Positions 2,143-38,453 of a stretch of DNA of 58,533 bases are shown in pieces (positions within the stretch are counted from its first letter, which is position 1; the number at the start of each line of letters is the position of its first letter). The DNA is from Candidatus Firestonebacteria bacterium RIFOXYA2_FULL_40_8. Lineage in GTDB: Bacteria; Oederibacteriota; D2-FULL-39-29. A model generated the notes under the pieces. It had not been told where the DNA came from and did no database searches. It was given only the letters and a program-made list of their open reading frames with translations. The stretch lies in contig MFGS01000039.1 in the NCBI GenBank assembly GCA_001778355.1, positions 1 through 58,533 of the forward strand, written 5' to 3'. Made by a program: the position numbers and the translations under genes.

Positions 2143-4626
2143 ATGACCACATCAAAGTTACTTATTAGCAGTCTTGCTTTATTATTTGCCGTCTCAGGGT
2201 ATTCCCAGACGGCGGACCTGAAGCAGGAGTTATTGAATAAAGGTGTTGTAAGCAAGACTGATCTCGAAAAGCTTACTGATACTACTGTTAACAATAAAGA
2301 AACCGGTGAAACAAAAGCCGCCTTGCCCTCTAAAGAGGAGAAAAAGCCGGAAATTGAACTTCCTTCGGTCATTGAAGAGCTTTTTATAAGGGAAGTGAAG
2401 GAAAGGCATGATGGGTATATAGAGGCAGGGAAAGCAAGTACAGCAGAGAAAGCAAATACAGGAAGTACGGAAGAAGGGGAAGCAAGTACAGGGAAAAAAG
2501 ATAAAGAACAGAAGTTTTTAAAGCAATTTGGGTATAATATATTTAAGGCGGCTTCTACTACGTTTGCGCCTACGGATAATGTTCCTGTCGGTCCGGACTA
2601 TATTGTAGGGCCGGGGGACAATTTTGTTGTTTACGTCTGGGGTAAGCTGGTTCAGGAGACGTTCAGCCTGACCGTGGACAGAGACGGTAAGATCTCTCTT
2701 CCCAAAGCCGGGGCTGTGTTTTTATGGGGTATGAAGTTCGGGGAAGCGGAAAAACTTATAAAAGACGCTCTCTCTCAAAATTACGCTAACTTCTCCATTA
2801 ATGTAACAATGGGCAAGCTTCGCACTATCCGTGTTTTTGTCCTCGGGGAAGTAAAAAAACCGGGCGGGTACACCATCAGCTCTCTTTCAACGCTCTTTCA
2901 CTCTCTTTACGAAGCCGGCGGCCCGACAAAAGTGGGATCGCTTCGGAAAATTAAACTTATCAGAGATAATAAAGTTGTTTCGACCGTAGATTTGTATGAT
3001 TTCCTCCTGATTGGCGAGAAAGGCCTGGATGTAAAACTTCAGTCCAATGATACGGTGTTTGTCCCATCAATCGGCGCGGTAGCAGGAGTAACCGGTAATA
3101 TTAAAAAACCCGGCATTTACGAACTCGCGGGTGAGACAAAACTTTCCTCTCTCATGAAAATGGTCGGTGGCGTTACACCTTCCGGTTATATTTCCCGCAT
3201 ACAGATAGAGCGGACGATAAACGGAGAGAGAAAAGCAGTTCTTGATATTGAGTTGAAAACCGCGGATGCGATGAAAGACAGTAAGGATATCACAATAAAT
3301 GATGGCGACCTCGTCACTGTTTTCCCAATTAACAAATTAAAATATAATTATGTCACCCTGTACGGCAATGTTGGCAGGCCTGCGGAGTACGAACTCACCC
3401 CGGGACTTAAAGTAAAGGACCTTATAGAAAAAGCCGGCGGAGTTCTTCCGGGAACGTATATGAACAGAGCCGAAATAAGCAGATATAAAAATGACAAAGC
3501 AAGAGAGATAGTTGCGTTTGACCCGGATAAACTTTTAAAAGGCGATGCGAAAGAAAACCAGTTGCTCAAAGAATGGGATGAAGTCACAATTTATGCCCAG
3601 TCTGAGATAATCCCAGTTTCACATGTAGAAATAAGCGGCGCGGTAAACAAAGAAGGAATGTTCGAACTTGCAGAAAAAATGAAGGTCTCGGATTTGATAT
3701 TCAAAGCTAAGGGGCTGAAAAAAACGGCATCAATGGATTCCGCCGAACTCTTTAAGATTGTCTTCGGTAAACAGCCGGAAATTAAAAAGATAAACCTGAA
3801 AAAGCTCCTGGTCGAAGGTGTTTCAGATGAAGACTATATTCTTGAAGCCGGCGACCATTTATTCATAAGAGAAGAAACCTCCTGGACGAATAAAAAGAAA
3901 ATAACTTTAAGTGGCGAGGTAAAATACCCCGGCACTTACGTAGCAGACAGCAATGAAAAGCTTTCAAGTATACTGGAAAGAGCCGGTGGTTATTCTGAAA
4001 AGGCCTGCCCTAAAGCAGCTGTTTTCACAAGAGAATCCGTAAAGACAATCCAGCAGAAGACCATGCTAAAGTATATGCAGCGCTTACAGCAACAAGTTGC
4101 CGCCGAAGGTGCAAAACTAGCTTCCTCTGCAAATGATGCTGAAACTAAAAAAGCAGCAGAAACGGTAAAAAGAAAAGAAGACCTGGTAAAAGTTTTAGGT
4201 AGTATTGATGTTCCCGGCAGACTGATAATCAAACTTGAGGACCTCAAGACATTCAAAGAAGGAAAAGACGATATAATCATCGAAGATGGCGACACTCTGT
4301 ATATTCCGCAAATTCCGTCAACGGTAAATGTCATAGGCAGTGTTTACAACCCCACAAGTATAGTTTACGAACAAGATAAAAATATCCATTTCTACCTTGA
4401 CCGAGTAGGCGGCACCACCAAAGATGCGGACAGAGGCGATGTATACATAGTCCGGGCCAGCGGCGAAGTAGACAAAAACAACGCCTGGGGAAAGAATATA
4501 GAACGCGGCGACACCATAATAGTCCCCGCCGAACTAAAAACCGAAACAAATTGGTTAAAAATACTGACTGATACTTCGACGATATTCTTCAATGCGGCAG
4601 TTGGTGTCTCCGCGATAAATAGGTAA
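2143..4626 (+). CDS. Polysaccharide export protein (Wza-like Poly_export domain plus multiple SLBB domains)
   Basis: 827 aa. Signal peptide MTTSKLLISSLALLFAVSGYSQ. GPDYIVGPGDNFVVYVWG export motif, followed by repeated SLBB-like units (GDLVTVFP, GDHLFIRE, GDTLYIPQ, GDTIIVP). RBS GAGGAG upstream. The N-terminus carries a low-complexity A/S/T/E/K insert encoded by a purine-rich tract (2421-2515). Confidence 0.8.
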   Translation: MTTSKLLISSLALLFAVSGYSQTADLKQELLNKGVVSKTDLEKLTDTTVNNKETGETKAALPSKEEKKPEIELPSVIEELFIREVKERHDGYIEAGKASTAEKANTGSTEEGEASTGKKDKEQKFLKQFGYNIFKAASTTFAPTDNVPVGPDYIVGPGDNFVVYVWGKLVQETFSLTVDRDGKISLPKAGAVFLWGMKFGEAEKLIKDALSQNYANFSINVTMGKLRTIRVFVLGEVKKPGGYTISSLSTLFHSLYEAGGPTKVGSLRKIKLIRDNKVVSTVDLYDFLLIGEKGLDVKLQSNDTVFVPSIGAVAGVTGNIKKPGIYELAGETKLSSLMKMVGGVTPSGYISRIQIERTINGERKAVLDIELKTADAMKDSKDITINDGDLVTVFPINKLKYNYVTLYGNVGRPAEYELTPGLKVKDLIEKAGGVLPGTYMNRAEISRYKNDKAREIVAFDPDKLLKGDAKENQLLKEWDEVTIYAQSEIIPVSHVEISGAVNKEGMFELAEKMKVSDLIFKAKGLKKTASMDSAELFKIVFGKQPEIKKINLKKLLVEGVSDEDYILEAGDHLFIREETSWTNKKKITLSGEVKYPGTYVADSNEKLSSILERAGGYSEKACPKAAVFTRESVKTIQQKTMLKYMQRLQQQVAAEGAKLASSANDAETKKAAETVKRKEDLVKVLGSIDVPGRLIIKLEDLKTFKEGKDDIIIEDGDTLYIPQIPSTVNVIGSVYNPTSIVYEQDKNIHFYLDRVGGTTKDADRGDVYIVRASGEVDKNNAWGKNIERGDTIIVPAELKTETNWLKILTDTSTIFFNAAVGVSAINR

Positions 4627-4911: not shown

Positions 4912-4982
4912 CTCAATGGCATTGCGAATAGCAAATGACGGAGGGTCTATTTTGACCCACCAACGCTTTGTGGAGGGTTGCG

Positions 4983-6254
4983 GTGAACATAAGGGTTTTA
5001 AAGGAAATAATAGCCGAGCAGAGGGAATATATTGATTCTGCCGTTACTGGTGTTGAAAGGGATGTGCTTCCGCTCTTTGAAAAATATGTGAAACTGCCTC
5101 ACACGGTTGTGGTCTCCGGCTTAAGAAGAGCCGGGAAATCTACTTTGCTGTGTCAGGTCATGAGAAAGCATTATAAAAATGACTGCTATTATCTGAGTTT
5201 TGAAGATGAGCGGCTTCTTGATTTTACAAAAGACGATTTTAACCTGTTGTACGAAGCCTTTATGGAAACGCAGGGAGAAAAAAAGGTTTTCTTTTTTGAT
5301 GAAATCCAGAATGTGCCGGAATGGGAAGCTTTTGTAAGACGGATGCAGGATCGGGGTTTCAAATTCTTTATAACCGGTTCCAATGCTTCTTTGCTGAGCA
5401 AAGAGCTGTCGACCAAGCTTACCGGCCGGTGTGTCACGGTGGAACTTTTTCCTTTTTCCTTCGGCGAATATCTCAGGTTCAAAGGTGTTGTGTTTGAAAA
5501 TGACCCGCTTACCGCGAAGAAAAAGGCGGGGCTTAAAAAAGAATGCTCGGAATATTTAACGGAAGGCGGTCTTCCGGAATTTCTGAAATATAAAGAAACT
5601 GTGATACAGGCGAGAGTTTACGAAGATATACTTTACAGAGATATTGTATCGAGGCATGGTATAAAGGAAATCAAGTCTCTTAGGGAAATGGCGCACTATT
5701 ATATAAGTAATGTAGGTAAGGAGTATTCATACAATAACATAAAGGAAATGCTCAAGCTGGGAAGTGAGAACACGGTCAAGAGCTACACCGGCTATATGGA
5801 GGATTCCTATCTCTTTCTATCGCTTAACAAGTTCTCGTTTTCTTTGAAAAAGCAGAATCTTGCGAATAAGAAGATCTACTGCATTGACACGGGAATAGCG
5901 CACACTATGGCTTTCAAGTTCTCTATGGATCACGGCCATCTTCTTGAAAATATGGCCGCTGTTGAGCTTCGGCGAAGGTATAAAGATATTTATTACTATA
6001 AGACCGATGACGGACTCGAAGTCGACTTCCTGGCAAAAGAACAGGGTAAATATATCCTTCTTCAGGTAACATCTGATATGTCAGATAAGAAGGTAAGAGA
6101 AAGAGAAATAGCAGCTCTAACCGCTTCCATGAAAGAACTGAAAACAAAAGAAGGTTTTATCCTTACTGAGAATGAAGAAGAAGACATAAAGATAAAGGCC
6201 TTGAAGATAACAGTAATCCCCCTTTACAAATGGCTTCTCTCGGTAAAACCGTAA
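4983..6254 (+). CDS. AAA+ ATPase with C-terminal DUF4143 domain (COG1373-type)
   Basis: Walker A GLRRAGKST, Walker B VFFFDEIQ, and a C-terminal nuclease-like GLEVDFLA motif. The ORF track starts at TTG 4968; GTG 4983 is preferred because GGAGGG lies 5 nt upstream. Confidence 0.8.
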   Translation: MNIRVLKEIIAEQREYIDSAVTGVERDVLPLFEKYVKLPHTVVVSGLRRAGKSTLLCQVMRKHYKNDCYYLSFEDERLLDFTKDDFNLLYEAFMETQGEKKVFFFDEIQNVPEWEAFVRRMQDRGFKFFITGSNASLLSKELSTKLTGRCVTVELFPFSFGEYLRFKGVVFENDPLTAKKKAGLKKECSEYLTEGGLPEFLKYKETVIQARVYEDILYRDIVSRHGIKEIKSLREMAHYYISNVGKEYSYNNIKEMLKLGSENTVKSYTGYMEDSYLFLSLNKFSFSLKKQNLANKKIYCIDTGIAHTMAFKFSMDHGHLLENMAAVELRRRYKDIYYYKTDDGLEVDFLAKEQGKYILLQVTSDMSDKKVREREIAALTASMKELKTKEGFILTENEEEDIKIKALKITVIPLYKWLLSVKP

Positions 6255-6460
6255 TATCAAAGAAAGTGCGGTCACTGACCGCACAATGTTCCGCTTCTCT
6301 GTCGTTATTTTGGCTAAGAAAGTGGAGACAACAAAAGCAAGTACAAAGTAAGAAGTACAAGGTTCAAAGTAGAAACTTTAATCTTGTTATTCCGCCTAGG
6401 CGGATTTCGCAAAGGGTAATGGATAGATATTTATACCTTTGCTCAATTTGTTGCTTGTAG

Positions 6461-28851: not shown

Positions 28852-29841
28852 ATGAATATTGGGATAATTGGCTGCGGTCTAATTGGAAAAAAGCGGGCGT
28901 TAAATATTTCTTCCGAAGATAAGATATTTGCTGTTTGCGATATTAATTCTGTTTCCGCAAAAGAGCTTGGCAGTTTATATAATTGCAAAAGCCTAAACAA
29001 CTGGAAGGAGCTTATTGCAGATAAAAGTGTAGACATTGTTGTAGTTTCTACTACTCATAATCTGCTTGCAGAAATATCTTTAGCCGCTATAAAAAATGGC
29101 AAGCATGTTCTAGTCGAAAAACCTGCCGCAAGAAATGCTGATGAGCTTCAAAAGGTCTTAAAAATATATAATAAAACAAAAAAGATAATAGTAAAAGTCG
29201 GTTTTAATCATCGGTTCCATCCTGCAATGCAAAAAGCAAAAGCCATGATAAGTAGCGGAGACATTGGCAAATTGATGTTTATTCGGGGAAGGTATGGCCA
29301 TGGCGGCAGGGTTGGCTATGATAAAGAATGGAGAGCTGTTCCTCAAATCTCAGGTGGTGGCGAATTATTAGACCAGGGAATGCATTTAATAGACCTGTCG
29401 AGATGGTATATGGGCGACTTTTCAAAGTCAACCGGAATAACGAAAACATATTTTTGGAATATGAAAGTTGAGGATAATGCTTTTATGCTGCTTACAACTA
29501 AGAATAGGCAGGTGGCACAGCTTCATGTAAGCTGGACAGAATGGAAAAACACATTTTCCCTTGAAATATACGGCAAAACGGGTAAAATAGCAATTGACGG
29601 CTTAGGCAAGAGTTATGGAACAGAGAAGTTAACATATTATAAAATGAGTGAGAAGATGGGACCTCCTGATACAAAAGTATTTGAATTTCCCGGAGAGGAT
29701 AACTCATGGAAAGAAGAATGGCTGGATTTTAAAAAAGCAATTAAAACAGGAAAAGAACCGTGCGGCAACTTAGAAGATGCTTGTAAGGCTTTACAAATAG
29801 TAAAAGCAATCTATAAGGAGAACAGGAATGATTATCGTTAG
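28852..29841 (+). CDS. Gfo/Idh/MocA-family oxidoreductase
   Basis: NIGIIGCGLIGKKR Rossmann start and a VLVEKPAA motif. ATG 28852 follows the upstream stop. Confidence 0.8.
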   Translation: MNIGIIGCGLIGKKRALNISSEDKIFAVCDINSVSAKELGSLYNCKSLNNWKELIADKSVDIVVVSTTHNLLAEISLAAIKNGKHVLVEKPAARNADELQKVLKIYNKTKKIIVKVGFNHRFHPAMQKAKAMISSGDIGKLMFIRGRYGHGGRVGYDKEWRAVPQISGGGELLDQGMHLIDLSRWYMGDFSKSTGITKTYFWNMKVEDNAFMLLTTKNRQVAQLHVSWTEWKNTFSLEIYGKTGKIAIDGLGKSYGTEKLTYYKMSEKMGPPDTKVFEFPGEDNSWKEEWLDFKKAIKTGKEPCGNLEDACKALQIVKAIYKENRNDYR

Positions 29842-30808
29842 AAGCCCTTTGAGAATATCCCTCGGCGGCGGAGGCACCGACTTGCCTTCCTATTATAAAA
29901 AGTTCGGCGGGTTTTTAATTGCCTCTGCTATCGATAAATACATCTATATTACCGTGCATGAAACATTTATTGACGATATGATAATAAAATATTCTAAACT
30001 TGAAAGGGTGCCGGCAATACATAAGATTGAGCATCCGATAATAAGAGAAACTGTAAAAATGCTGGATATTAAAAATATGAATATTGAATTAACCAGCATG
30101 GCTGACATTCCTGCCGGGACGGGGCTGGGGTCTTCGGGGAGCTTTACTACGGCGCTCCTGCAGGCGCTCCATGCATATAAGCGGAACCTGGTACATCCTC
30201 ATGAACTGGCGGAACAGGCGTGTCATATTGAAATAGATCTATTGAAAGAGCCGATAGGAAAACAGGATCAGTACATTGCTGCCTACGGAGGGATTACTTG
30301 TTTTGAATTTCACAAGGATGACAAAGTCAGGGCGTATCCTTTAAAAATAGATAAGGAAACATTATATAATCTGGAGGATAATTTACTTTTGTTTTTCACG
30401 GGGTATTCGAGGTCTGCAAGCGGAATATTAAAAGACCAGCATGAAAAAAGTAATAAAGATGACAAAGAGATGCTGGATAATCTTCATTTTATAAAAGACA
30501 TAGGGCATAAGACAAAAGAAGCTCTTGAAAACGGCAACTTGCATGAGTTTGCAAGGCTTATGGATGTACATTGGCAAAAGAAGCGGGAACGCACCAAAGG
30601 TATGTCGAATGATAAGATAAACGAGTGGTATGAGCTGGCAAAGGATAACGGCGCTTTAGGCGGAAAACTAATCGGGGCAGGCGGCGGCGGATTTTTGATG
30701 TTTTATGCGGAAGATAAGACAAAGCTCCGCCATGTAATGAAGGAAGCGGGCCTTAAGGAAGTAAGGTTTAAATTTGATTTTGAAGGAACCAAGGTTATTG
30801 TTTCATGA
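29828..30808 (+). CDS. hddA: GHMP kinase, D-glycero-alpha-D-manno-heptose 7-phosphate kinase-like
   Basis: N-terminal MIIVRSPLRISLGGGGTDLPSYY is typical of HddA-type kinases. GHMP motif PAGTGLGSSGS. Confidence 0.75.
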   Translation: MIIVRSPLRISLGGGGTDLPSYYKKFGGFLIASAIDKYIYITVHETFIDDMIIKYSKLERVPAIHKIEHPIIRETVKMLDIKNMNIELTSMADIPAGTGLGSSGSFTTALLQALHAYKRNLVHPHELAEQACHIEIDLLKEPIGKQDQYIAAYGGITCFEFHKDDKVRAYPLKIDKETLYNLEDNLLLFFTGYSRSASGILKDQHEKSNKDDKEMLDNLHFIKDIGHKTKEALENGNLHEFARLMDVHWQKKRERTKGMSNDKINEWYELAKDNGALGGKLIGAGGGGFLMFYAEDKTKLRHVMKEAGLKEVRFKFDFEGTKVIVS

Positions 30809-31617
30809 AAGGAATTAGTGTTGTAATAATTGCCGGAGGTCTTGCTACAAGGCTCCGGCCTATCACGGAAAAGATTCCCAAGTCCTTAATAGATATAAAC
30901 GGAAAGCCCTTTCTGGAATACCAGCTAAGATTACTAAAAGAAAAAGGATTTACGGATGTTGTTTTATGTTTGGGGTATTTAGGATCAATGATTGAGAAAG
31001 AGTTTAAAGACGGCAGTAATCTGGGAATGAGTATACAATACAGCTACGACGGTGACAAGCTCTTAGGCACCGGCGGGGCGGTTAGGAAGGCGTTACCGCT
31101 GCTTAGCGATGTTTTTATAGTGATGTATGGGGATTCTTACCTTGATGTTGATTATAATGCAATAGTAGAAGCTTTTAATAATGACAAAGAGAAGCCACTG
31201 GGAATGATGACAGTTTACAGGAATGACAACAAATTTGACAAAAGTAATATAGTATATAAAGACGGCAGAATAATCGCCTATGACAAAAAGAACAAATTAC
31301 CCGGAATGGATTATATAGATTGGGGATTAAGTGTTTTCAGGAAGGAAGCGTTTGAAGAAGTGAATAAAGCAAAAAATGCAAGTAAAGCAAGTACAGAAAC
31401 AAAAGAGAGTAAAGAAAAGTTTGATCTTGAAGAATTGATGAAAATATTGATTGCAAAGAAAAAAATGGCGGGATATGAAGTAAGAGACAGGTTTTATGAG
31501 ATAGGTTCAGTTGAGGGCTTGGAAGAGTTAAGAAAGAAGCTGGCGAACGAAGTGAGTAAAGTGAATAAAGTGGGAACAGCAAAAGAAGTAACTGAAGCAA
31601 AAACAGAGAAATATTGA
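30805..31617 (+). CDS. hddC: Sugar-1-phosphate nucleotidyltransferase, heptose-1-phosphate guanylyltransferase-like
   Basis: VIIAGGLATRLRPITEKIPKSL, GKPFLEY, LGTGGA. It carries an internal low-complexity insert (about 31355-31419) and a K/E/T/V tail (31545-31614), both encoded by purine-rich tract sequence. ATGA overlap upstream. Confidence 0.75.
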   Translation: MKGISVVIIAGGLATRLRPITEKIPKSLIDINGKPFLEYQLRLLKEKGFTDVVLCLGYLGSMIEKEFKDGSNLGMSIQYSYDGDKLLGTGGAVRKALPLLSDVFIVMYGDSYLDVDYNAIVEAFNNDKEKPLGMMTVYRNDNKFDKSNIVYKDGRIIAYDKKNKLPGMDYIDWGLSVFRKEAFEEVNKAKNASKASTETKESKEKFDLEELMKILIAKKKMAGYEVRDRFYEIGSVEGLEELRKKLANEVSKVNKVGTAKEVTEAKTEKY

Positions 31618-31675
31618 AGTTGCAACTTCTAAAATTCCCAAGAAAGATTACTCTTTTCTGAAGCCTATTTGCTTT
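31411..31675 (+). repeat. Left copy of a long imperfect direct repeat (hddC 3-prime end plus 3-prime UTR)
   Basis: 31411-31480 matches 36443-36511, with 2 substitutions and one 1-nt indel. 31563-31675 matches 36622-36734, with 5 mismatches in 113 nt. Order and orientation are the same in both copies. Confidence 0.9.
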
Positions 31676-31708
31676 ACTTTTTTAACTTTTTTTGGGGAGT
31701 CTTACTAA
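31647..31708 (+). repeat. Left copy of a 62-nt direct repeat flanking the second ATPase module
   Basis: Matches 33468-33529: the last 42 nt are identical and the first 20 nt have 4 mismatches. Confidence 0.9.
31674..31708 (-). pseudogene. Orphan 3-prime fragment of a DUF1016 nuclease gene (last 8 codons TPQKKLKK plus stop)
   Basis: Identical to the true 3-prime end of the DUF1016 gene at 33495-33529. Upstream of it the reading frame has no similarity to that gene. Confidence 0.7.
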
Positions 31709-32145
31709 TGAAGAAAGAGGGACAGCCACACTTGTAGGTTGAATTCCTCCCCTCGATGAGACCTTTAAAACGTTTATGATCGCCGTAATTGTCGGCTTTT
31801 AACCTTTCCAATCGGACAAAGATTCTACTCACCCCTTGAGCAACCGAAAGGTTGATCATACCGAATGAGAATGGCGGGAGCCCTCTAAAAATTACTGTTA
31901 TAGGTTTTTCATTAATAGGTTTGTGCTTTCCCCTAGAGAGCATAAGCCGAAGAGCTTGTAACATTAAAAGGCAAGCTACTGTGAAGTCCAGGGCGAGAGG
32001 TTGCGCCTGCGTAAATGGCTTCTCCGTAGCCGGCCGGCGAATATTAGATTGTGCCCTCCATTTATTTGATAAACCTCGAGACTGGTATCAAGTAAAATAC
32101 AGCCAAAATAAGCGATTTTAACGAAAAATACTATATGCTATTACA
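31709..32145. ncRNA. ORF-poor, visibly GC-richer segment; candidate structured RNA or decayed element end (class and strand unknown)
   Basis: No credible ORF. Hairpins include CAACC-GAAA-GGTTG (31841-31854) and GAGAGG-N18-CTTCTC (31995-32024). 31984-32005 resembles 33350-33371. Confidence 0.3.
31724..31752 (+). repeat. Boundary motif AGCCACACTTGTAGGTTGAATTCCTCCCC, copy 1
   Basis: 27 of 29 nt identical to 33393-33421. A 14-nt core CCTTATAGGTTGAA recurs at 39210-39228. All three copies are in direct orientation. Confidence 0.8.
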
Positions 32146-32174
32146 TTGACATATAGTACTTTTTGTGATATATT
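32146..32174 (+). promoter_or_regulatory. Sigma-70-type promoter TTGACA-17 nt-TATATT for the second DUF4143 ATPase gene
   Basis: TTGACA at 32146-32151 and TATATT at 32169-32174. The ATG at 32184 is only 9 nt after the -10 box and has no RBS, suggesting a leaderless or near-leaderless mRNA. Confidence 0.6.
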
Positions 32175-32183
32175 TCTTTTGTT

Positions 32184-33335
32184 ATGATAAAAAGAACATT
32201 TTGGCAAAATAATATTGAAGCGGCTTGGAAAAGACACTCAGTAATCTGGCTTTCCGGTATAAGAAGAGCCGGCAAGACATTTCTTTGCAGAAATATTGAA
32301 GGTGCCGATTATTATGATTGCGAACTTCCAAGTATTAGAGAAAAGCTTAAAGATCCTGAGAAATTTCTTAATAATAATAAAAATAGAATACTGGTTTTTG
32401 ATGAAATCCATAGATTGGGTAATCCTTCCGAACTGCTTAAAATAGCCGCAGATTATCACCAAAATATAAAAGTTATTGCTACTGGCTCATCAACACTTGG
32501 CGCATCGTCAAAGTTTAGGGATACTCTTACGGGGAGAAAGAGTAATATCTGGATGACACCAATGATTTATACCGATATTTCAGAATTTTCAAATGTTAAT
32601 ATCAAACATCGAATGTTAAAAGGAGGGCTTCCTCCATTTTTTATGGCAAAAACTGATAATGAAAAAGACTATCAGGACTGGATAGATTCATACTGGGCAA
32701 AAGATGTACAGGAATTATTTAGATTAGAAAGCAAGAGTTCATTTCAAAAGTTTTTAGAGCTTCTTATTTATAATAGCGGTGGAATGTTTGAAGCAAACAC
32801 ATATGCTGTTCCTTGCGAAGTAAGTAGAGGTACCATCTCAAATTATTTAAAAATACTTGAGGAAACATATGTTGTTACTGTTGTTAAACCTTTTAATTCA
32901 CATAAACCTACGGAGATTGTGTCTGCTCCAAAAGTATATGTTTTTGACACCGGTTTTGTATCTCACTTTAAGGGATGGCATGATTTAAAAAATAAAGATT
33001 GCGGAATACTCTGGGAACATCTAATTTTAAATGAAATATTAGCAATTAGTCAAAGAAATATGGCATATTATTGGAGGACTAAAAAAGACTGCGAGGTTGA
33101 TTTTATTATTCCATTAAAAAACAAAAGCCAAGTAGCAATTGAATGTAAATGGAGCTTCAAGTCATTTGATGCGCAAAACGTTGTTATTTTTCGTAAAAAC
33201 TATCCTACGGGAGACAATATTGTTGTAGCACATGATGTAGAGGATGAATTCTTTAAAGATATAAACGGAGTAAAAATTAGATTTCTGAATTTAAAAAACT
33301 TTGAAAAATATTTAGTTTCATTGTTTCCTGCATAA
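32184..33335 (+). CDS. AAA+ ATPase with C-terminal DUF4143 domain (second copy, diverged)
   Basis: Walker A GIRRAGKTF, Walker B ILVFDEIH, and C-terminal CEVDFII. Same architecture as the gene at 4983-6254. Confidence 0.8.
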   Translation: MIKRTFWQNNIEAAWKRHSVIWLSGIRRAGKTFLCRNIEGADYYDCELPSIREKLKDPEKFLNNNKNRILVFDEIHRLGNPSELLKIAADYHQNIKVIATGSSTLGASSKFRDTLTGRKSNIWMTPMIYTDISEFSNVNIKHRMLKGGLPPFFMAKTDNEKDYQDWIDSYWAKDVQELFRLESKSSFQKFLELLIYNSGGMFEANTYAVPCEVSRGTISNYLKILEETYVVTVVKPFNSHKPTEIVSAPKVYVFDTGFVSHFKGWHDLKNKDCGILWEHLILNEILAISQRNMAYYWRTKKDCEVDFIIPLKNKSQVAIECKWSFKSFDAQNVVIFRKNYPTGDNIVVAHDVEDEFFKDINGVKIRFLNLKNFEKYLVSLFPA

Positions 33336-33392
33336 ATTATTATTTTGAGAGTAGCCAAGGCGAGAGATTGCATTAGCATCTTGAGTCTACCC

Positions 33393-33421
33393 AGCCACCC
33401 TTATAGGTTGAATTCCTCCCC
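33393..33421 (+). repeat. Boundary motif AGCCACCCTTATAGGTTGAATTCCTCCCC, copy 2
   Basis: See 31724-31752. Confidence 0.8.
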
Positions 33422-33467
33422 GGAAAAAGGTAAGAATAAATGAGGGACATTAATGTTTTTGAAAAAT

Positions 33468-33529
33468 ACTACTCTTTCCTGAAACCGATTTGCTTTACTT
33501 TTTTAACTTTTTTTGGGGAGTCTTACTAA
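33468..33529 (+). repeat. Right copy of the 62-nt direct repeat (covers the true DUF1016 gene 3-prime end)
   Basis: See 31647-31708. Confidence 0.9.
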
Positions 33530-34550
33530 GTCCAACTTCCAATTCTTTAATTGTAGGAAAGCTTGATTTAAGTTTCTTTGGTAATGAATGGGACAATATA
33601 TATTGAGAAATGCCGATTGGTTTACGAATATCACTCAAAGCATATTCGGCGACCATTTTATCTCTATTTTTACAAAGCAAGAGTCCTATGGTTGGCAGAT
33701 CTCCTTCGCTGCGTAACCGGTTATCAACTGCCTTGAGGTAAAAATTCAGTTTTCCTGCATGTTCCGGTTCGAAATCTCCGGTCTTTAGTTCAAGCACCAC
33801 ATAACAATGAAGACGAGTATGGTAGAACAAAAGATCGATAAAAAACTCGCGTTCCCCTACTTGAACAGGCACCTGTCTGCCAAGAAATGCGAACCCTGTG
33901 CCCAGTTCCAGCAAAAACTTCATTACATGATTTACCAAGGCATTTTCAAGTTCGTTTTCGTCATGTTCTTTTGACATGTTCAGAAAATCGAAGATGAATG
34001 GATCTTTAAGCGCTTGTTCGGCGAGGTCTGAGTTTGACTTTGGCAAGACAGACGCAAAATTATTAATGGACCTGCCTTTACGTTTATATAGGCCATTTTC
34101 TATCTGATGGACAAGAACATTACGGCTCCAGCTATTTGAAAGAGTGTTCTGTATATAAAATAGGGCTTCGTTTATGTTTTTACATTTGGACATAATGGCG
34201 ATATTATGCCCCCATGGTATTTGGGTTAATTGGGCAACAACTTGTTGCCCAATTGGACTATTTTTTGTATAAAACAGATACCATTGACGGATATACTTAA
34301 GATTTCGTAATGAAAAGCCTTGCATGGCGGGGAATTCCGAAGCAAGGTCTTTACTTAAATGGATTAATAATCCTTCTCCCCATTTTGTTTCTTTTTGTTT
34401 AAGTACAATATCTTTTCCCATACTCCAATACAACTCGAGTAATTCAGTGTTGACCTTCAGAGTTGCTTTAATCTGAGCATTACGCACTCTTATCTTAATA
34501 TCAGAGAGCCATGCCTTATAGACTTTATCAAAATGAATTTCAGATTTCAT
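33495..34550 (-). CDS. DUF1016 / YhcG-family PD-(D/E)XK nuclease domain protein
   Basis: The N-terminal helical region begins MKSEIHFDKVYKAWL. The C-terminal nuclease core is FIDLLFYHTRLHCYVVLELKTGDFEPEHAGKLNFY. ATG 34550 is preceded by GGGAGA. The 68 Leu-rich residues upstream in the track are the complement of a purine-rich tract. Confidence 0.85.
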   Translation of the reverse strand: MKSEIHFDKVYKAWLSDIKIRVRNAQIKATLKVNTELLELYWSMGKDIVLKQKETKWGEGLLIHLSKDLASEFPAMQGFSLRNLKYIRQWYLFYTKNSPIGQQVVAQLTQIPWGHNIAIMSKCKNINEALFYIQNTLSNSWSRNVLVHQIENGLYKRKGRSINNFASVLPKSNSDLAEQALKDPFIFDFLNMSKEHDENELENALVNHVMKFLLELGTGFAFLGRQVPVQVGEREFFIDLLFYHTRLHCYVVLELKTGDFEPEHAGKLNFYLKAVDNRLRSEGDLPTIGLLLCKNRDKMVAEYALSDIRKPIGISQYILSHSLPKKLKSSFPTIKELEVGLSKTPQKKLKK

Positions 34551-34553
34551 ATA

Positions 34554-34630
34554 TTTCTCCCTTGAGAAAATAGATAATAGTATTTTACAGAAAAACAGAA
34601 GAAAAAGCAAATAAAGAAAGAGAAGCAGGG
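34554..34630 (-). promoter_or_regulatory. Conserved 5-prime flank (RBS plus promoter region) shared with the ORF6N gene, copy 1
   Basis: About 70 of 78 positions are identical to 37279-37356. It begins immediately upstream of the start codon on the minus strand. Confidence 0.7.
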
Positions 34631-34776
34631 GAAGCAAGAACAGGAATAACAGTGAGTAAAGTGAAGAAAGTGGAAACAGGGACGACAGTAAGAGAAGCAG
34701 GAGAAGTAAAGGAAGCAAGTACAGTAAGTGAAGCAAAAGAAGTAAGAACAGCAAAAACAGAGAAATATTTAAATTC

Positions 34777-34806: not shown

Positions 34807-34951
34807 TAGTCCAAGGTCACCTAAGGGGTGAGATAAAGGCAAATTCGAAGCACTAACCCTCCAAAAAGATTGGCGGGTGACTAATATTTATATACTAAGG
34901 TCAGTCAAATTCGAAACTTATTGTATTAATAAAGCTCAAGGGGGAAAGGGT

Positions 34952-36292
34952 ATGTTTTTGAAAGAATCCGAAGTATTAGAGTTGAAAAAATCAACGTCTG
35001 AAATTAAAGAGGCAATAGTTTCTATCTCTTCTATCCTGAATAAACATCAGAGGGGCGAGTTATATTTTGGCGTTAAGAATGACGGGGAGATTGTAGGTCA
35101 GACAATCGGAGCGTCTACTCTGCGGGATATTTCTCAGGCAATATCGAATCATATCGAACCAAAGATATATCCTTCAATAGATGCGGTTAATATCAGAGGT
35201 AAAACCTGCATTAAGATTGAGTTTCAAGGCGAAGATATTCCCTACCATGCTTATGGCCGGGTTTATATTAGAGTCGCAGATGAAGATAGGCAGTTAAGCC
35301 CTAATGAAATAAGAAAAGTTATTTTAAAAAAGAATAAGGATAAATATATATGGGAATCGGAATATTCAGGTTTCGATATTAAAAAGGTAAGCGAAAAGGC
35401 AGTAAAAAGCTTTATCAAAAAAGCGAAAATATTTAAAAGAATAGATTTTGGTTTCAGTGGTGTAAAAACAGTTCTAAATAAATTAGGATTGATGCGCAAT
35501 CAGAAGCTGTTAAAGCCGGCAGAGCTGCTGTTTTGTAATAATGATACATTTGAAGTACAGGCTGCGGTCTTTGCCGGTACTGATAAAATAACATTTTTGG
35601 ATATAGATAAATTTACTGGAAATTTGTTTGATATTTTGGAGAAATCCGAAGCTTATATAAGAGAGCACATTAATTGGGGCGTAAAATTCGGGAGATTGGA
35701 GAGGGAGGAAGTTCCGGAAATACCTATTAAAGCGATAAGAGAAGCTCTGGTAAATTCGTTGTGTCATAGAGATTATTCAGTTCCCAAGGGCAATGAAATT
35801 GCGATTTTTAAGAACAGGGTTGAAATATACAATCCTGGTGAATTTCCGGAAGAGTTATCGCCGGAAGATTTTATAAAAGGTAAAGAAAGATCTGTTTTAC
35901 GAAATCCGCTTATTGCCGAAGTATTTTATAAAGCAAAAGAAATAGAAAAGTGGGGTTCCGGGCTAAAACGAATTAATGATGAATGCAAGGCGGTTAAAAT
36001 AAAAGTTGAATTTAAAGTTCTTAAAACAGGATTTATGGTTGTCTTCTATAGGCGGGAAAAAGCCGAAGCACCAGTTCCTAATAAAACACACAGAAAACAC
36101 ACAGAAAACACACAGAAAATAATAGAGGCTATAATTAAAAATCCGGCAATATCAAGAAAGCAGCTTTCAAGAGATACTAAAATGAGTGTCAGCAGTGTTA
36201 TTCATCAGCTGAGAACATTGCAGAAAGACAAATATATAAAACGTGTTGGCCCGGACAAAGGCGGCTATTGGGAAGTAATAGAAAACAGCTAA
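34952..36292 (+). CDS. AlbA_2 (Schlafen-type) domain + HATPase_c_4 + winged-HTH protein (the RecG-like putative transcriptional regulator architecture)
   Basis: N-terminal ESEVLELKKS...ELYFGVKNDGEIVG (AlbA_2). Central IREALVNSLCHRDY...EKWGSGLKRI (HATPase_c_4). C-terminal HTH ISRKQLSRDTKMSVSSVIHQLRTL. ATG 34952 follows a G-rich RBS. Confidence 0.8.
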   Translation: MFLKESEVLELKKSTSEIKEAIVSISSILNKHQRGELYFGVKNDGEIVGQTIGASTLRDISQAISNHIEPKIYPSIDAVNIRGKTCIKIEFQGEDIPYHAYGRVYIRVADEDRQLSPNEIRKVILKKNKDKYIWESEYSGFDIKKVSEKAVKSFIKKAKIFKRIDFGFSGVKTVLNKLGLMRNQKLLKPAELLFCNNDTFEVQAAVFAGTDKITFLDIDKFTGNLFDILEKSEAYIREHINWGVKFGRLEREEVPEIPIKAIREALVNSLCHRDYSVPKGNEIAIFKNRVEIYNPGEFPEELSPEDFIKGKERSVLRNPLIAEVFYKAKEIEKWGSGLKRINDECKAVKIKVEFKVLKTGFMVVFYRREKAEAPVPNKTHRKHTENTQKIIEAIIKNPAISRKQLSRDTKMSVSSVIHQLRTLQKDKYIKRVGPDKGGYWEVIENS

Positions 36293-36442
36293 GGGAAGAA
36301 GAGAAAGCAGTAACAGTAAAAAAAAGCAAAAACAGTAGAAGAATTAAGAGAAGTAAGAACAGAAAGAAAAGACCCTGGATCTCCACCACAAAGCGTTGGT
36401 GGATCAAAGACCCGCTATTAAAAACTACAGGATGACAAAGGG

Positions 36443-36511
36443 AAAGAAAAGTTTGACCTGGAAGAATTGATGAAAATATTGATTGCAAAGAAAAAATGGC
36501 GGGATATGAAG
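36443..36511 (+). pseudogene. Displaced, frameshifted copy of a 70-nt internal segment near the hddC 3-prime end
   Basis: Matches 31411-31480 except for 2 substitutions and loss of one A in the A-run. It is not part of any ORF. Confidence 0.8.
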
Positions 36512-36734
36512 AAAGGGAAGCAGGGGAAGCAAACAAAGCAAGTACAGTAAGTGAAGTGAAGGAAGTTGAGGAAAGTCTAAATATCAGACAGGTATACTTT
36601 CCGAAATCCACCTAGGCGGATGAATAAAGTGGGAACAGCAAAAGAAGTAACTGAAGCAAAAACAGAGAAATATTGAAGTTGCAACTTCTAATATTCCTAT
36701 GAAAGATTACTCTTTTCTGAAACCGATTTGCTTT
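36443..36734 (+). repeat. Right copy of the long imperfect direct repeat
   Basis: See 31411-31675. The central part (36512-36621) is replaced by purine-rich tract sequence and a TCCACCTAGGCGGA hairpin. Confidence 0.9.
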
Positions 36735-37274
36735 TTGGGTTTGGTTGGTTGATTTATCATCCTTCGAATCTGGCCAATTATATCTTTTATTACCTCGCTC
36801 CTCCAAAAAGATTGGCGGACAGGCGTGGGTTTCTATTTTGTTGTCATGTAATTCCATTTTGCTTTCAATTTTTGCAAGTTTTTCAAGTATTTCCTTGTGG
36901 GTTAATAAATACCTTCTAAATGAAACAAAAACACGCATTATTTCTATGTTAATTGTGATGGCTCTATCGCTGTTTAAAACACCCGATAGCATTGCGATAC
37001 CTTGCTCTGTAAAGGCATAAGGATTGTAGCCGCCTAGATATTTCCTGGATGGTATCGCAAATTGCGATACCATGGTCGCGACTTCTTCATCTGTTAATTG
37101 AAACATGAAATCTGCAGGGAAGCGCTTTATGTTTCTTTTAACTGCCTCGTTTAAAATTCTGGTCTCAACCGCATACAATTCCGCAAGATCCGAGCTTAAC
37201 ATTACGTATTCGTTCCTTATAAGGTGTATTTTGCTTTCTATTGCTTTTAAAACTATCGGATGTTTTTCAATCAT
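36612..37274 (-). CDS. ORF6N (KilA-N-like) DNA-binding domain protein; C-terminal about 60 aa read through repeat sequences
   Basis: LSSDLAELYAVETRILNEAVKRNIKRFPADFMFQLT...NPYAFTEQGIAMLSGVLNSDRAI is a textbook ORF6N pattern. After HDNKIE the frame runs through a CCGCCAA hairpin repeat (36800-36818) and the 113-nt repeat, so the native C-terminus is probably disrupted. Confidence 0.75.
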   Translation of the reverse strand: MIEKHPIVLKAIESKIHLIRNEYVMLSSDLAELYAVETRILNEAVKRNIKRFPADFMFQLTDEEVATMVSQFAIPSRKYLGGYNPYAFTEQGIAMLSGVLNSDRAITINIEIMRVFVSFRRYLLTHKEILEKLAKIESKMELHDNKIETHACPPIFLEERGNKRYNWPDSKDDKSTNQTQKANRFQKRVIFHRNIRSCNFNISLFLLQLLLLLFPLYSSA

Positions 37275-37278
37275 TTTG

Positions 37279-37356
37279 TTTCTCCCTTGAGAAAATAGAT
37301 AAGAGTATTATGCAAAAAAATAGTAGAAAAAGCAAATTAAAGAAAGAGAAGCAGGG
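37279..37356 (-). promoter_or_regulatory. Conserved 5-prime flank shared with the DUF1016 gene, copy 2
   Basis: See 34554-34630. Confidence 0.7.
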
Positions 37357-37735
37357 AAAGTGCGGACAATGAGCAAAGTGGAGAAAGCAAGAGTAGCAAG
37401 TACGAAGTACGAGGTCCAAAGTAAGAAGTTAAAGCAGGAAAAACAAAAGCAGTGAAAAGGGATGACAAACAGGGAAAAGTGAGGCAGGATAAAGACAGAG
37501 GTTTAGATGGTTGTCCGCCAATTATGTTAGGCGGATCTCTGGAAGAGATGCTTGGAGGCTTGGCGATTGCAAAAAAAACAAAGGGATGACAAACTAGGAA
37601 ATGTGAGATACAATGAAGATAGACGCGCGGAGGCTCAGAAGCGCAGCAAGAACTGATATATTGGATGGATTTTTATCTACTCTCGATTTTCGATTGTCTA
37701 TTTTCTGCCATGACTGCTTCATGGCTAGGGGGATT

Positions 37736-38119: not shown

Positions 38120-38453
38120 CGGATGGAAGCGCAGAGGCTCGGATGCTTGGAGGCGCGGCAAAAACAGAAAAAACAGTGAAGAAAGTGGGTAAAGAAAAAA
38201 GCCTGGTCGCCGGCTTTTAGGCGAGCAGTCCGCCAACGCTTTTTGGCGGAAAGAGCAGTAGAAGAAGGAATAGAATCAAGAACTGCTCCTCATTAATTTT
38301 GCACTCATTGTGTGCCGATTTCCGGAAAGATTGTGAACGCTTTGCGTTCATAATTGAAAATTAGGTTTCTTTGAAAGTCAATTCTTGACGCAGTCTGTCG
38401 ATAATATTATGACTGAGTTGACCAACAGGTTGTTGGCTGATTTAGCCCTCCTC

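Follow-up and report, generated by a model that had tools for sequence, protein, structure and literature searches.

A stretch of 58,533 nt of contig MFGS01000039.1, from the assembly GCA_001778355.1 of Candidatus Firestonebacteria bacterium RIFOXYA2_FULL_40_8, was analysed as a whole and is referred to below as the window. The PEPCK of the host has 90-92% identity to proteins assigned to this candidate phylum. It contains a small islet of candidate defence genes, located after a polysaccharide operon. Within the islet, the 3' end of a gene for a DUF1016_N+YhcG_C nuclease of the PD-(D/E)xK type borders a 1.76-kb segment that carries one gene, encoding an AAA_14+DUF4143 ATPase, and no methyltransferase. 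This segment is enclosed by the two copies of a direct repeat, A and A' (Table 1), and the origin of this arrangement is the subject of the present report. An AlbA_2-type gene and an ORF6N gene lie beyond the nuclease gene, and PIN and AbiEii genes come next in the islet.

Table 1. Coordinates of the features discussed, numbered from the first nucleotide of the window
Feature	Coordinates	Strand	Remarks
First AAA_14+DUF4143 gene	4968..6254	+	Other PDC-S01 subfamily; solo, after Poly_export gene
Outer repeat, left	31411..31675		Nucleotidyltransferase 3' part, end of purine-rich tail, and D; R1 31411-31484, R2 31562-31675
A, left copy	31643..31708		Orphan made up of D, a shared 3' flank of 33 nt, followed by final 33 nt of DUF1016 gene
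GC-richer non-coding stretch	31709..32083	+	Absent from relatives of the ATPase module
Inner repeat B	31723..31752		28/30 identical to B'; 14 nt right of A
Conserved ATPase module	32084..33343	+	Palindrome, promoter and CDS
Operator-like palindrome	32121-32166		TACTATATG-N12-CATATAGTA; overlaps -35 element
Promoter	32146-32174		TTGACA-17-TATATT with TG; 11/12 consensus positions
Second AAA_14+DUF4143 CDS	32184-33335	+	Pfam, PADLOC
Spacer between ATPase stop and A'	33344..33463		Unlike relatives' downstream sequence except T-arm-like motif
Inner repeat B'	33392..33421		42 nt left of A'
A', right copy	33464..33529		Runs into functional DUF1016 gene; DUF1016 stop codon 33495-33497 inside
DUF1016_N+YhcG_C PD-(D/E)xK nuclease gene	33495..34550	-	Proposed insertion target; PADLOC PDC-S02
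Element U	34554..34634	-	DUF1016 promoter, 5' leader and ribosome-binding region; 90% identical to U'
SLFN_AlbA_2+HATPase_c_4+HTH gene	34877..36292	+	Matches pAgo-associated PADLOC models
Outer repeat, right	36443..36734		R1' 36443-36515, 95%; R2' 36621-36734, 96%; orphan, abuts ORF6N 3' end
ORF6N gene	36612..37274	-	PADLOC PDC-S05; same U...D frame as DUF1016; listed ORF continues through D into spacer
Element U'	37279..37360	-	Upstream of ORF6N

The repeat search of the window aligned A with A' as a 66-nt direct pair matching at 61 positions (92%), and a self-blastn comparison reported a slightly shorter pair of 60 nt (31649-31708 and 33470-33529, 95%). Counted along the 66 nt, the mismatches occupy positions 4, 6, 15, 21 and 24, and the final 42 nt are identical; the 62-nt repeat given in the preliminary description, with 42 identical nucleotides and four mismatches among the other 20, was recovered in the same frame. 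A 41-mer taken from these 42 nt has exactly two occurrences in the window (0.00 expected from 100 shuffles). As had also been described, A' covers the genuine stop codon and the final ∼11 codons of the DUF1016 gene, while A supplies the same ending, TPQKKLKK-stop, to a 96-aa ORF that is otherwise meaningless. The orphan is continuous with the native flank formed by R2 and D, and the same flank adjoins the ORF6N gene 5 kb away, which supports the view that the DUF1016 3' end received an insertion accompanied by a duplication of the target. Searches by tblastn with the DUF1016 and ORF6N proteins returned known repeats only, with no further DUF1016 remnant beside the orphan. The 33-nt DUF1016 part of A is present in just two copies in the window and the D part in three, at 31643, 33464 and 36702-36734, the third abutting the 3' end of ORF6N.

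The A/A' pair is real, and neither a chance similarity nor an assembly artefact, since the same structure is found in several independent assemblies: it is identical in the ENA scaffold, in the JGI contig and in further contigs of 50-200 kb. The left junction is moreover spanned by an independent MEGAHIT contig (L010, corresponding to window positions 29792-31959), and a Logan contig present in two samples (L003, 31759-33485) covers most of the insert and most of its right side.

Between the two copies lie, much as the preliminary description had it, a GC-richer and ORF-poor stretch, a consensus promoter and the ATPase gene. The GC content of the stretch is 0.435-0.445, as opposed to 0.29-0.36 in neighboring sequence. 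Its six frames are stop-filled or meaningless, and a pseudogene was accordingly rejected; likewise no Rfam family matched 31709-32083 at gathering scores, at E≤1 or at E≤10, and blastn against plasmids gave no match to the stretch. It does contain a 68-nt hairpin at 31896-31963 with 28 pairs, seven of them G-U, which is confined to the plus strand (folding z-score -5.6, and -0.2 on the minus strand) and matches no Rfam family. The insert also has a second, inner pair of repeats close to its ends, B and B', a sequence present twice in the window (0.03 occurrences expected). B' holds a T-arm-like motif, AGGTTGAATTCCTC, at an offset from the ATPase stop codon equal to that of the tRNA-Arg T-arm in the relative L006 described below. 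A candidate third pair, C (31988-32004 and 33355-33371, 15/17), was borderline when compared with shuffled sequence. Remnants of a tRNA or tmRNA were considered for B and C and rejected, as ARAGORN recognized none with its default settings and, with the threshold lowered to 50%, proposed only an implausible one; the region of B' (33340-33430) had no Rfam tRNA match at E≤10 and an unremarkable folding z-score of -0.8. An 8-mer, GAGGGACA, near both ends of the segment was treated as chance. Pfam detected no transposase or integrase domain in the insert, no mobility gene appeared in scans and tables of the window from 22 to 58 kb, and the repeat search found no inverted repeat connecting the ends of the A-bounded segment.

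The ATPase belongs to the candidate defence family PDC-S01 of PADLOC (model PDLC04789, 8.4e-58) and matches the Pfam families AAA_14 (8e-20) and DUF4143 (1e-31). Among 30 aligned homologues the Walker A residues GKT30-32, the Walker B residues DE73-74 and the nuclease motif D306...E320-x-K322 are invariant; the protein is predicted to join an AAA+ ATPase with a PD-(D/E)xK nuclease, both motif sets being intact. A structure model (pLDDT 76) displays an AAA+ fold for which Foldseek returned generic matches only (ORC, RuvB, McrB and MuB); the nuclease fold was not matched in this search, and no solved structure had a sequence match to the ATPase. The first ATPase of the window also matches the PDC-S01 HMM (6e-113). 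It had been described as a second intrusion of like kind, a view our results do not favor: the two proteins share 23% identity, and no direct repeat flanks the first gene. In the literature PDC-S01 (COG1373) has been ranked fourth in frequency among defence candidates and said to have undergone many transfers between domains, so that the earlier statement that DUF4143 ATPases are not known to be mobile was too strong. Most such candidates still await validation (PMC12988326). The two window ATPases agree with the published family in the HMM match, the domain pair, and the Walker and PD-(D/E)xK motifs, as well as in the occurrence of a solo gene amid other defence candidates and in a patchy phyletic spread. 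They differ insofar that the literature consulted is silent on movement of the gene, whereas a conserved promoter and operator of its own and duplicated target ends at three loci are observed here. PDC-S01-type ATPases also recur in or beside polysaccharide operons, namely twice in the window, in the GT9/GT4 operon of L092/L093, and near a UDP-glucose dehydrogenase gene in L089. No DUF4143 gene was present in the 64 unrelated glycan loci examined.

Comparison with relatives delimits what is shared. The closest relative of the ATPase (L011, 90% amino acid identity) shares 91% nucleotide identity limited to 32176-33338, and the next one (L006, from a Firestonebacteria metagenome-assembled genome, 80% amino acid identity) shares 82% ungapped nucleotide identity limited to 32084-33343. 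Both come, like the window, from the same candidate phylum or related samples. Their flanks are unrelated to those of the window: in L006 the gene is surrounded by the end of an IS3-type transposase, AT-rich DNA and a tRNA-Arg gene, and in L011 it has a PIG-L-like gene for a neighbor. Because sharing is confined to these limits and the flanks are unrelated, the segment 31709-33463 is, judging from these alignments, not a conserved mobile unit, and the recurrent module is a promoter plus a gene. This departs from the preliminary description, which had proposed a discrete mobile unit of about 1.8 kb; only 32084-33343 is common to relatives, and neither a recombinase nor inverted ends were found. 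A search for further copies of that unit and of its ends had been proposed, and pattern scans for A and B returned none in the window or in viral contigs. The genome scan with the ATPase gave one locus, and the viral scan with its profile gave two distant loci, both without repeats.

Across phyla, the homology begins 40-100 nt upstream of the ATG and stops at the stop codon, and a conserved promoter block, TTGCATTTAGTAgCACTaTATGCTAAtAT, accompanies the gene. The palindrome overlaps the -35 element, and the block is retained with the gene in different phyla, which suggests that the gene may be autoregulated by the winged-helix part of its product. The palindrome and promoter block were also seen at ∼905-950 in L006 and just 5' of the ATPase genes in L089, L090, L092 and L101. 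The DUF1016 gene behaves in a similar manner, as an 87% identical relative shares 84% nucleotide identity only over 34564-33524. The 87% DUF1016 homologue in L076 (3715-4934) lies divergently upstream of a homologue of the Poly_export gene (window 2143-4626), and a 44-aa ORF6N fragment comes after it.

One script was used to screen the regions bordering other ATPase loci, and at two further loci, which lie in unrelated genomes, the ATPase gene is bracketed by a duplicated gene end. In L092/L093, which represent two assemblies, a 1.23-kb insertion of promoter and ATPase splits a GT9 glycosyltransferase gene after codon 12, within a glycan operon (L092 3914-5345). The repeat at this locus duplicates the first 12 GT9 codons with 24 of 25 nucleotides identical, extends to ∼37 nt with more mismatches, and has a mismatch skew similar to that of A/A'. 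The upstream copy encodes MKKILFIRHDNISD... followed by a stop, and the downstream copy, ...VLFIRRDNIGDLICTTP..., enters the GT9 domain with its ATG lost. In L090/L091 a 26-nt repeat (25/26; L090 3925-3950 and 6833-6858) corresponds to the stretch over which BacA and RadC, which converge, overlap at their 3' ends; the 2.9-kb insertion consists of the ATPase gene and two others, and the ends of both BacA and RadC are intact. No flanking repeat was detected at the first ATPase of the window or at the L087-L089, P0053 and P0115 loci, and duplicated gene ends were lacking in the four plasmid homologues, all distant (25-28% identity). The lengths are 60-66 nt in the window, 25-37 nt in L092 and 26 nt in L090, and the sequences at the latter two are unrelated to A or B. 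The preliminary description had proposed to test whether the flanks of other DUF4143 genes carry the same terminal motifs; duplicated gene ends were found, and a shared terminal motif was not. The interpretation of A as an att-type repeat fares poorly for a related reason, since the repeats of other loci differ in sequence and length and hence do not represent one att site.

In a separate comparison within Nitrospiraceae, L110 (862-2102) has a 1.1-kb MNT(Polbeta)/HepT toxin-antitoxin pair that L102 (1150-1350) lacks. On either side of the pair L110 carries a copy of an imperfect 28-nt direct repeat, of which the empty allele has one copy only.

Our results moderately favor the explanation that 31709-33463 is foreign DNA that entered the DUF1016 gene at its last codons, with a long target duplication of variable length, as described for restriction-modification units. 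The cargo would have been self-sufficient, comprising the operator-like palindrome, the near-consensus promoter and the PDC-S01 ATPase-nuclease gene. The event would have duplicated 60-66 nt of target, that is, the final 33 nt of DUF1016 together with its 3' flank, and because of this duplication the end of DUF1016 would have been kept intact and the orphan left by the old flank. All five mismatches between A and A' fall in the first 24 of 66 positions, which under uniform decay has a probability of (24/66)^5 = 0.006. This skew suggests that the incoming DNA may have carried its own diverged copy of D and the DUF1016 end and recombined inside the 42-nt identical core, through one crossover of a circular intermediate or through break repair of an equivalent kind. 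The islet as a whole may have grown through repeated events of this kind.

Insertions with long target duplication form a class described in 2000, as cited in Furuta, Abe and Kobayashi 2010 (PMC2853133). In the cases compiled by Furuta et al. (2010) the repeats exceed 30 bp, vary in length, often lie across start or stop codons and are not accompanied by mobility genes; they include a solitary Type IV nuclease gene (mcrA), and double-strand breakage was suggested to take part in the mechanism. The window locus is alike in that a nuclease-type defence unit of less than 20 kb lacks transposase and integrase, in that the repeats are longer than 30 bp (60-66 nt, 92-95%) with a length differing between events, and in that the repeat covers the stop (or start) codon of a neighbor that is kept intact. 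It differs in its cargo, a candidate defence ATPase-nuclease of the PDC-S01 family, and falls outside the class by a strict definition because this is not a restriction-modification system. Other differences are that Furuta et al. recognized their cases by a genome whose site was empty, whereas none was found for this locus, that the window repeat is imperfect in a skewed way, and that a second, inner repeat pair is present. The repeats of Furuta et al. are unique in the genome; counted in the window only, the 33-nt DUF1016 part of A occurs twice and D three times. On balance the arrangement appears to be a further instance of insertion with long target duplication and not a new type of transposon.

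Several observations weigh against an insertion of this kind. Flanking repeats were found at only three of ∼10 independent close-family ATPase loci and at none of the four distant plasmid homologues. About 500 nt of extra DNA and the mirrored inner pair B are unexplained by one simple insertion; one idea is serial transfer, in which each move would take along the rim of the previous site, so that B would be such a rim and the GC-rich stretch a possible relic of an earlier host. An empty site, for which a comparison with relatives had been proposed, was not found, as all contigs with the exact proteins were filled and the metagenome scan with the nucleotidyltransferase gave matches of at most 52% identity. 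Identical ATPase proteins occur on many contigs and always in one context, and there is hence no sign of ongoing transposition. Finally, D is itself a thrice-repeated junction of the islet, and unequal recombination between such “handles” could for that reason yield the same picture.

This last possibility can be stated as an explanation in its own right, in which the orphan is a leftover and not the mark of an insertion: unequal homologous recombination between D, U and the purine-rich spacers would have duplicated a D-DUF1016 cassette that was then mostly deleted, the last 33 nt remaining as the orphan. We regard it as unlikely, although it deserves more weight than the other alternatives. 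The materials for such exchanges are at hand, with three copies of D, two of U and three purine-rich spacer ends, and DUF1016 and ORF6N occupy the same U...D frame. Another sample differs within the spacer at 34721/2 and then has a start like that of gene 37613, and other orphan pieces exist, namely the nucleotidyltransferase fragment at 36443-36515 and the 44-aa ORF6N fragment beside DUF1016 in L076. However, no additional trace of DUF1016 is present to the right of the orphan, and the ATPase modules bracketed elsewhere by duplicated ends of unrelated genes would be left unexplained. The perfect 42-nt core next to a D that is 20% diverged also favors a crossover point over an old, decayed copy. 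Somewhat less probable still is an integrative element that is non-autonomous and depends on a tyrosine or serine recombinase whose gene lies elsewhere in the genome, with A/A' or B/B' as attL and attR and an attP that mimics the 3' end of the target. The 3' ends of tRNA genes are classical att sites, and B' has its T-arm-like motif where L006 has a tRNA-Arg gene; in addition, an identical 42-nt core beside a diverged arm (five mismatches within 24 nt) resembles hybrid att sites. Site-specific integrative elements at the 3' ends of tRNA and protein genes indeed share with the window direct repeats that duplicate the target 3' end, an identical core with diverged arms, and an element-side copy that restores the gene. 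They differ in that the window segment has no integrase among its Pfam matches or in the 22-58 kb region, is not conserved as a unit, and at 1.8 kb is far under their usual size, while the repeats in L090 and L092 are wholly different in sequence and length. No other copy of A or B was found in the window or in viral contigs, and no tRNA model fits B' even at E≤10.

It is very improbable that the segment is a classical transposon or an insertion sequence that duplicated its target site. The segment is flanked by direct repeats, as such an element would be, but their length varies among loci (25-37, 26 and 60-66 nt), the 60-66 nt duplication of the window included, and the segment is single-copy and without terminal inverted repeats or a transposase domain. 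We give hardly any credence to chance similarity, to local replication slippage or to chimerism of the metagenome assembly, in spite of the low-complexity purine repeats in which the islet is rich: the expected number of chance matches is 0.00, the copies stand 1.8 kb apart around a complete foreign gene, and independent assemblies agree, with independent contigs spanning the left junction. A diversity-generating retroelement was rejected by inspection, as the mismatches are not adenine-specific and no reverse transcriptase is present, and integron cassettes were rejected in the absence of an attC-like site or IntI. A more far-reaching variant of the insertion with long target duplication is that PDC-S01 genes are autonomous single-gene selfish elements whose own nuclease breaks gene boundaries, repair then giving long duplications of variable length, and that the nested pairs A and B (and perhaps C) record serial hops, each taking with it a rim of the site before. 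We consider this speculative and its probability low, between those of the integrative element and the transposon; if true, it would mean that the module of operator, promoter and gene promotes its own insertion.

For the window alone, insertion with long target duplication amounts mainly to a tidy annotation of a small defence islet. Its wider interest is that three independent loci share one footprint, in which a promoter-plus-gene module is bracketed by a duplicate of the start or stop region of a neighboring gene. That footprint would tie the PDC-S01 genes, which are reported to be among the most abundant defence candidates of bacteria and archaea, to the long-target-duplication route of restriction-modification genes, and it provides a concrete signature that is searchable genome-wide and testable in the laboratory.

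The remaining repeats place the insert in a larger pattern. All modules of the islet have flanking direct repeats, whereas 26 control ORFs from other parts of the window had none (uniform test, E<1e-5). The nested arrangement proposed in the preliminary description holds, in that an outer pair, which duplicates the 3' end of a nucleotidyltransferase gene, encloses the DUF1016, ATPase and AlbA_2 modules; in its right copy a purine-rich repeat stands in place of the middle part. The AlbA_2-type gene has its own flanking pair of purine-rich spacer-end repeats (34732-34769 and 36637-36674, 89%). The unrelated genes DUF1016 and ORF6N share the promoter and leader U as well as the 3' junction D. They have the appearance of alternative cassettes for a single expression slot, now standing in tandem. 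In this the islet resembles defence islands and hotspots with cassette substitution, having unrelated genes in one frame by a conserved operon, strain-level variation, and toxin-antitoxin and Abi genes (PIN and AbiEii). It differs from them insofar that both cassettes are present in tandem, the frame is duplicated, and the frame consists of short non-coding sequences and not of core genes.

Short-read contigs end reproducibly just right of B and within A' (the ends of L003, 31759 and 33485, are examples), and a scaffold of another sample (L085, 465-579) diverges in the purine-rich spacer at the position given above. Taken together, the reproducible ends and this divergence hint at strain-level heterogeneity of the islet. 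The purine-rich spacers have a 9-nt period and end three times in CAAAAACAGAGAAATATT (31598, 34752 and 36657). Purine-rich repeats were noted at 31360-31615, 34600-34770, 36290-36570, 37300-37600 and 6310-6380, and on the other strand of L076 at 3500-3700; they enter reading frames, where they form the nucleotidyltransferase's Lys/Glu-rich tail and extend the ORF6N ORF, and vary between samples. A small hairpin motif, CCGCCAAnnCTTTTTGGMGG, is found at 34856-34878, 36798-36822 and 38228-38250, and at ∼5085 in the relative L076, and the motif CCTAGGCGG is repeated at 6393, 36611 and 37525.

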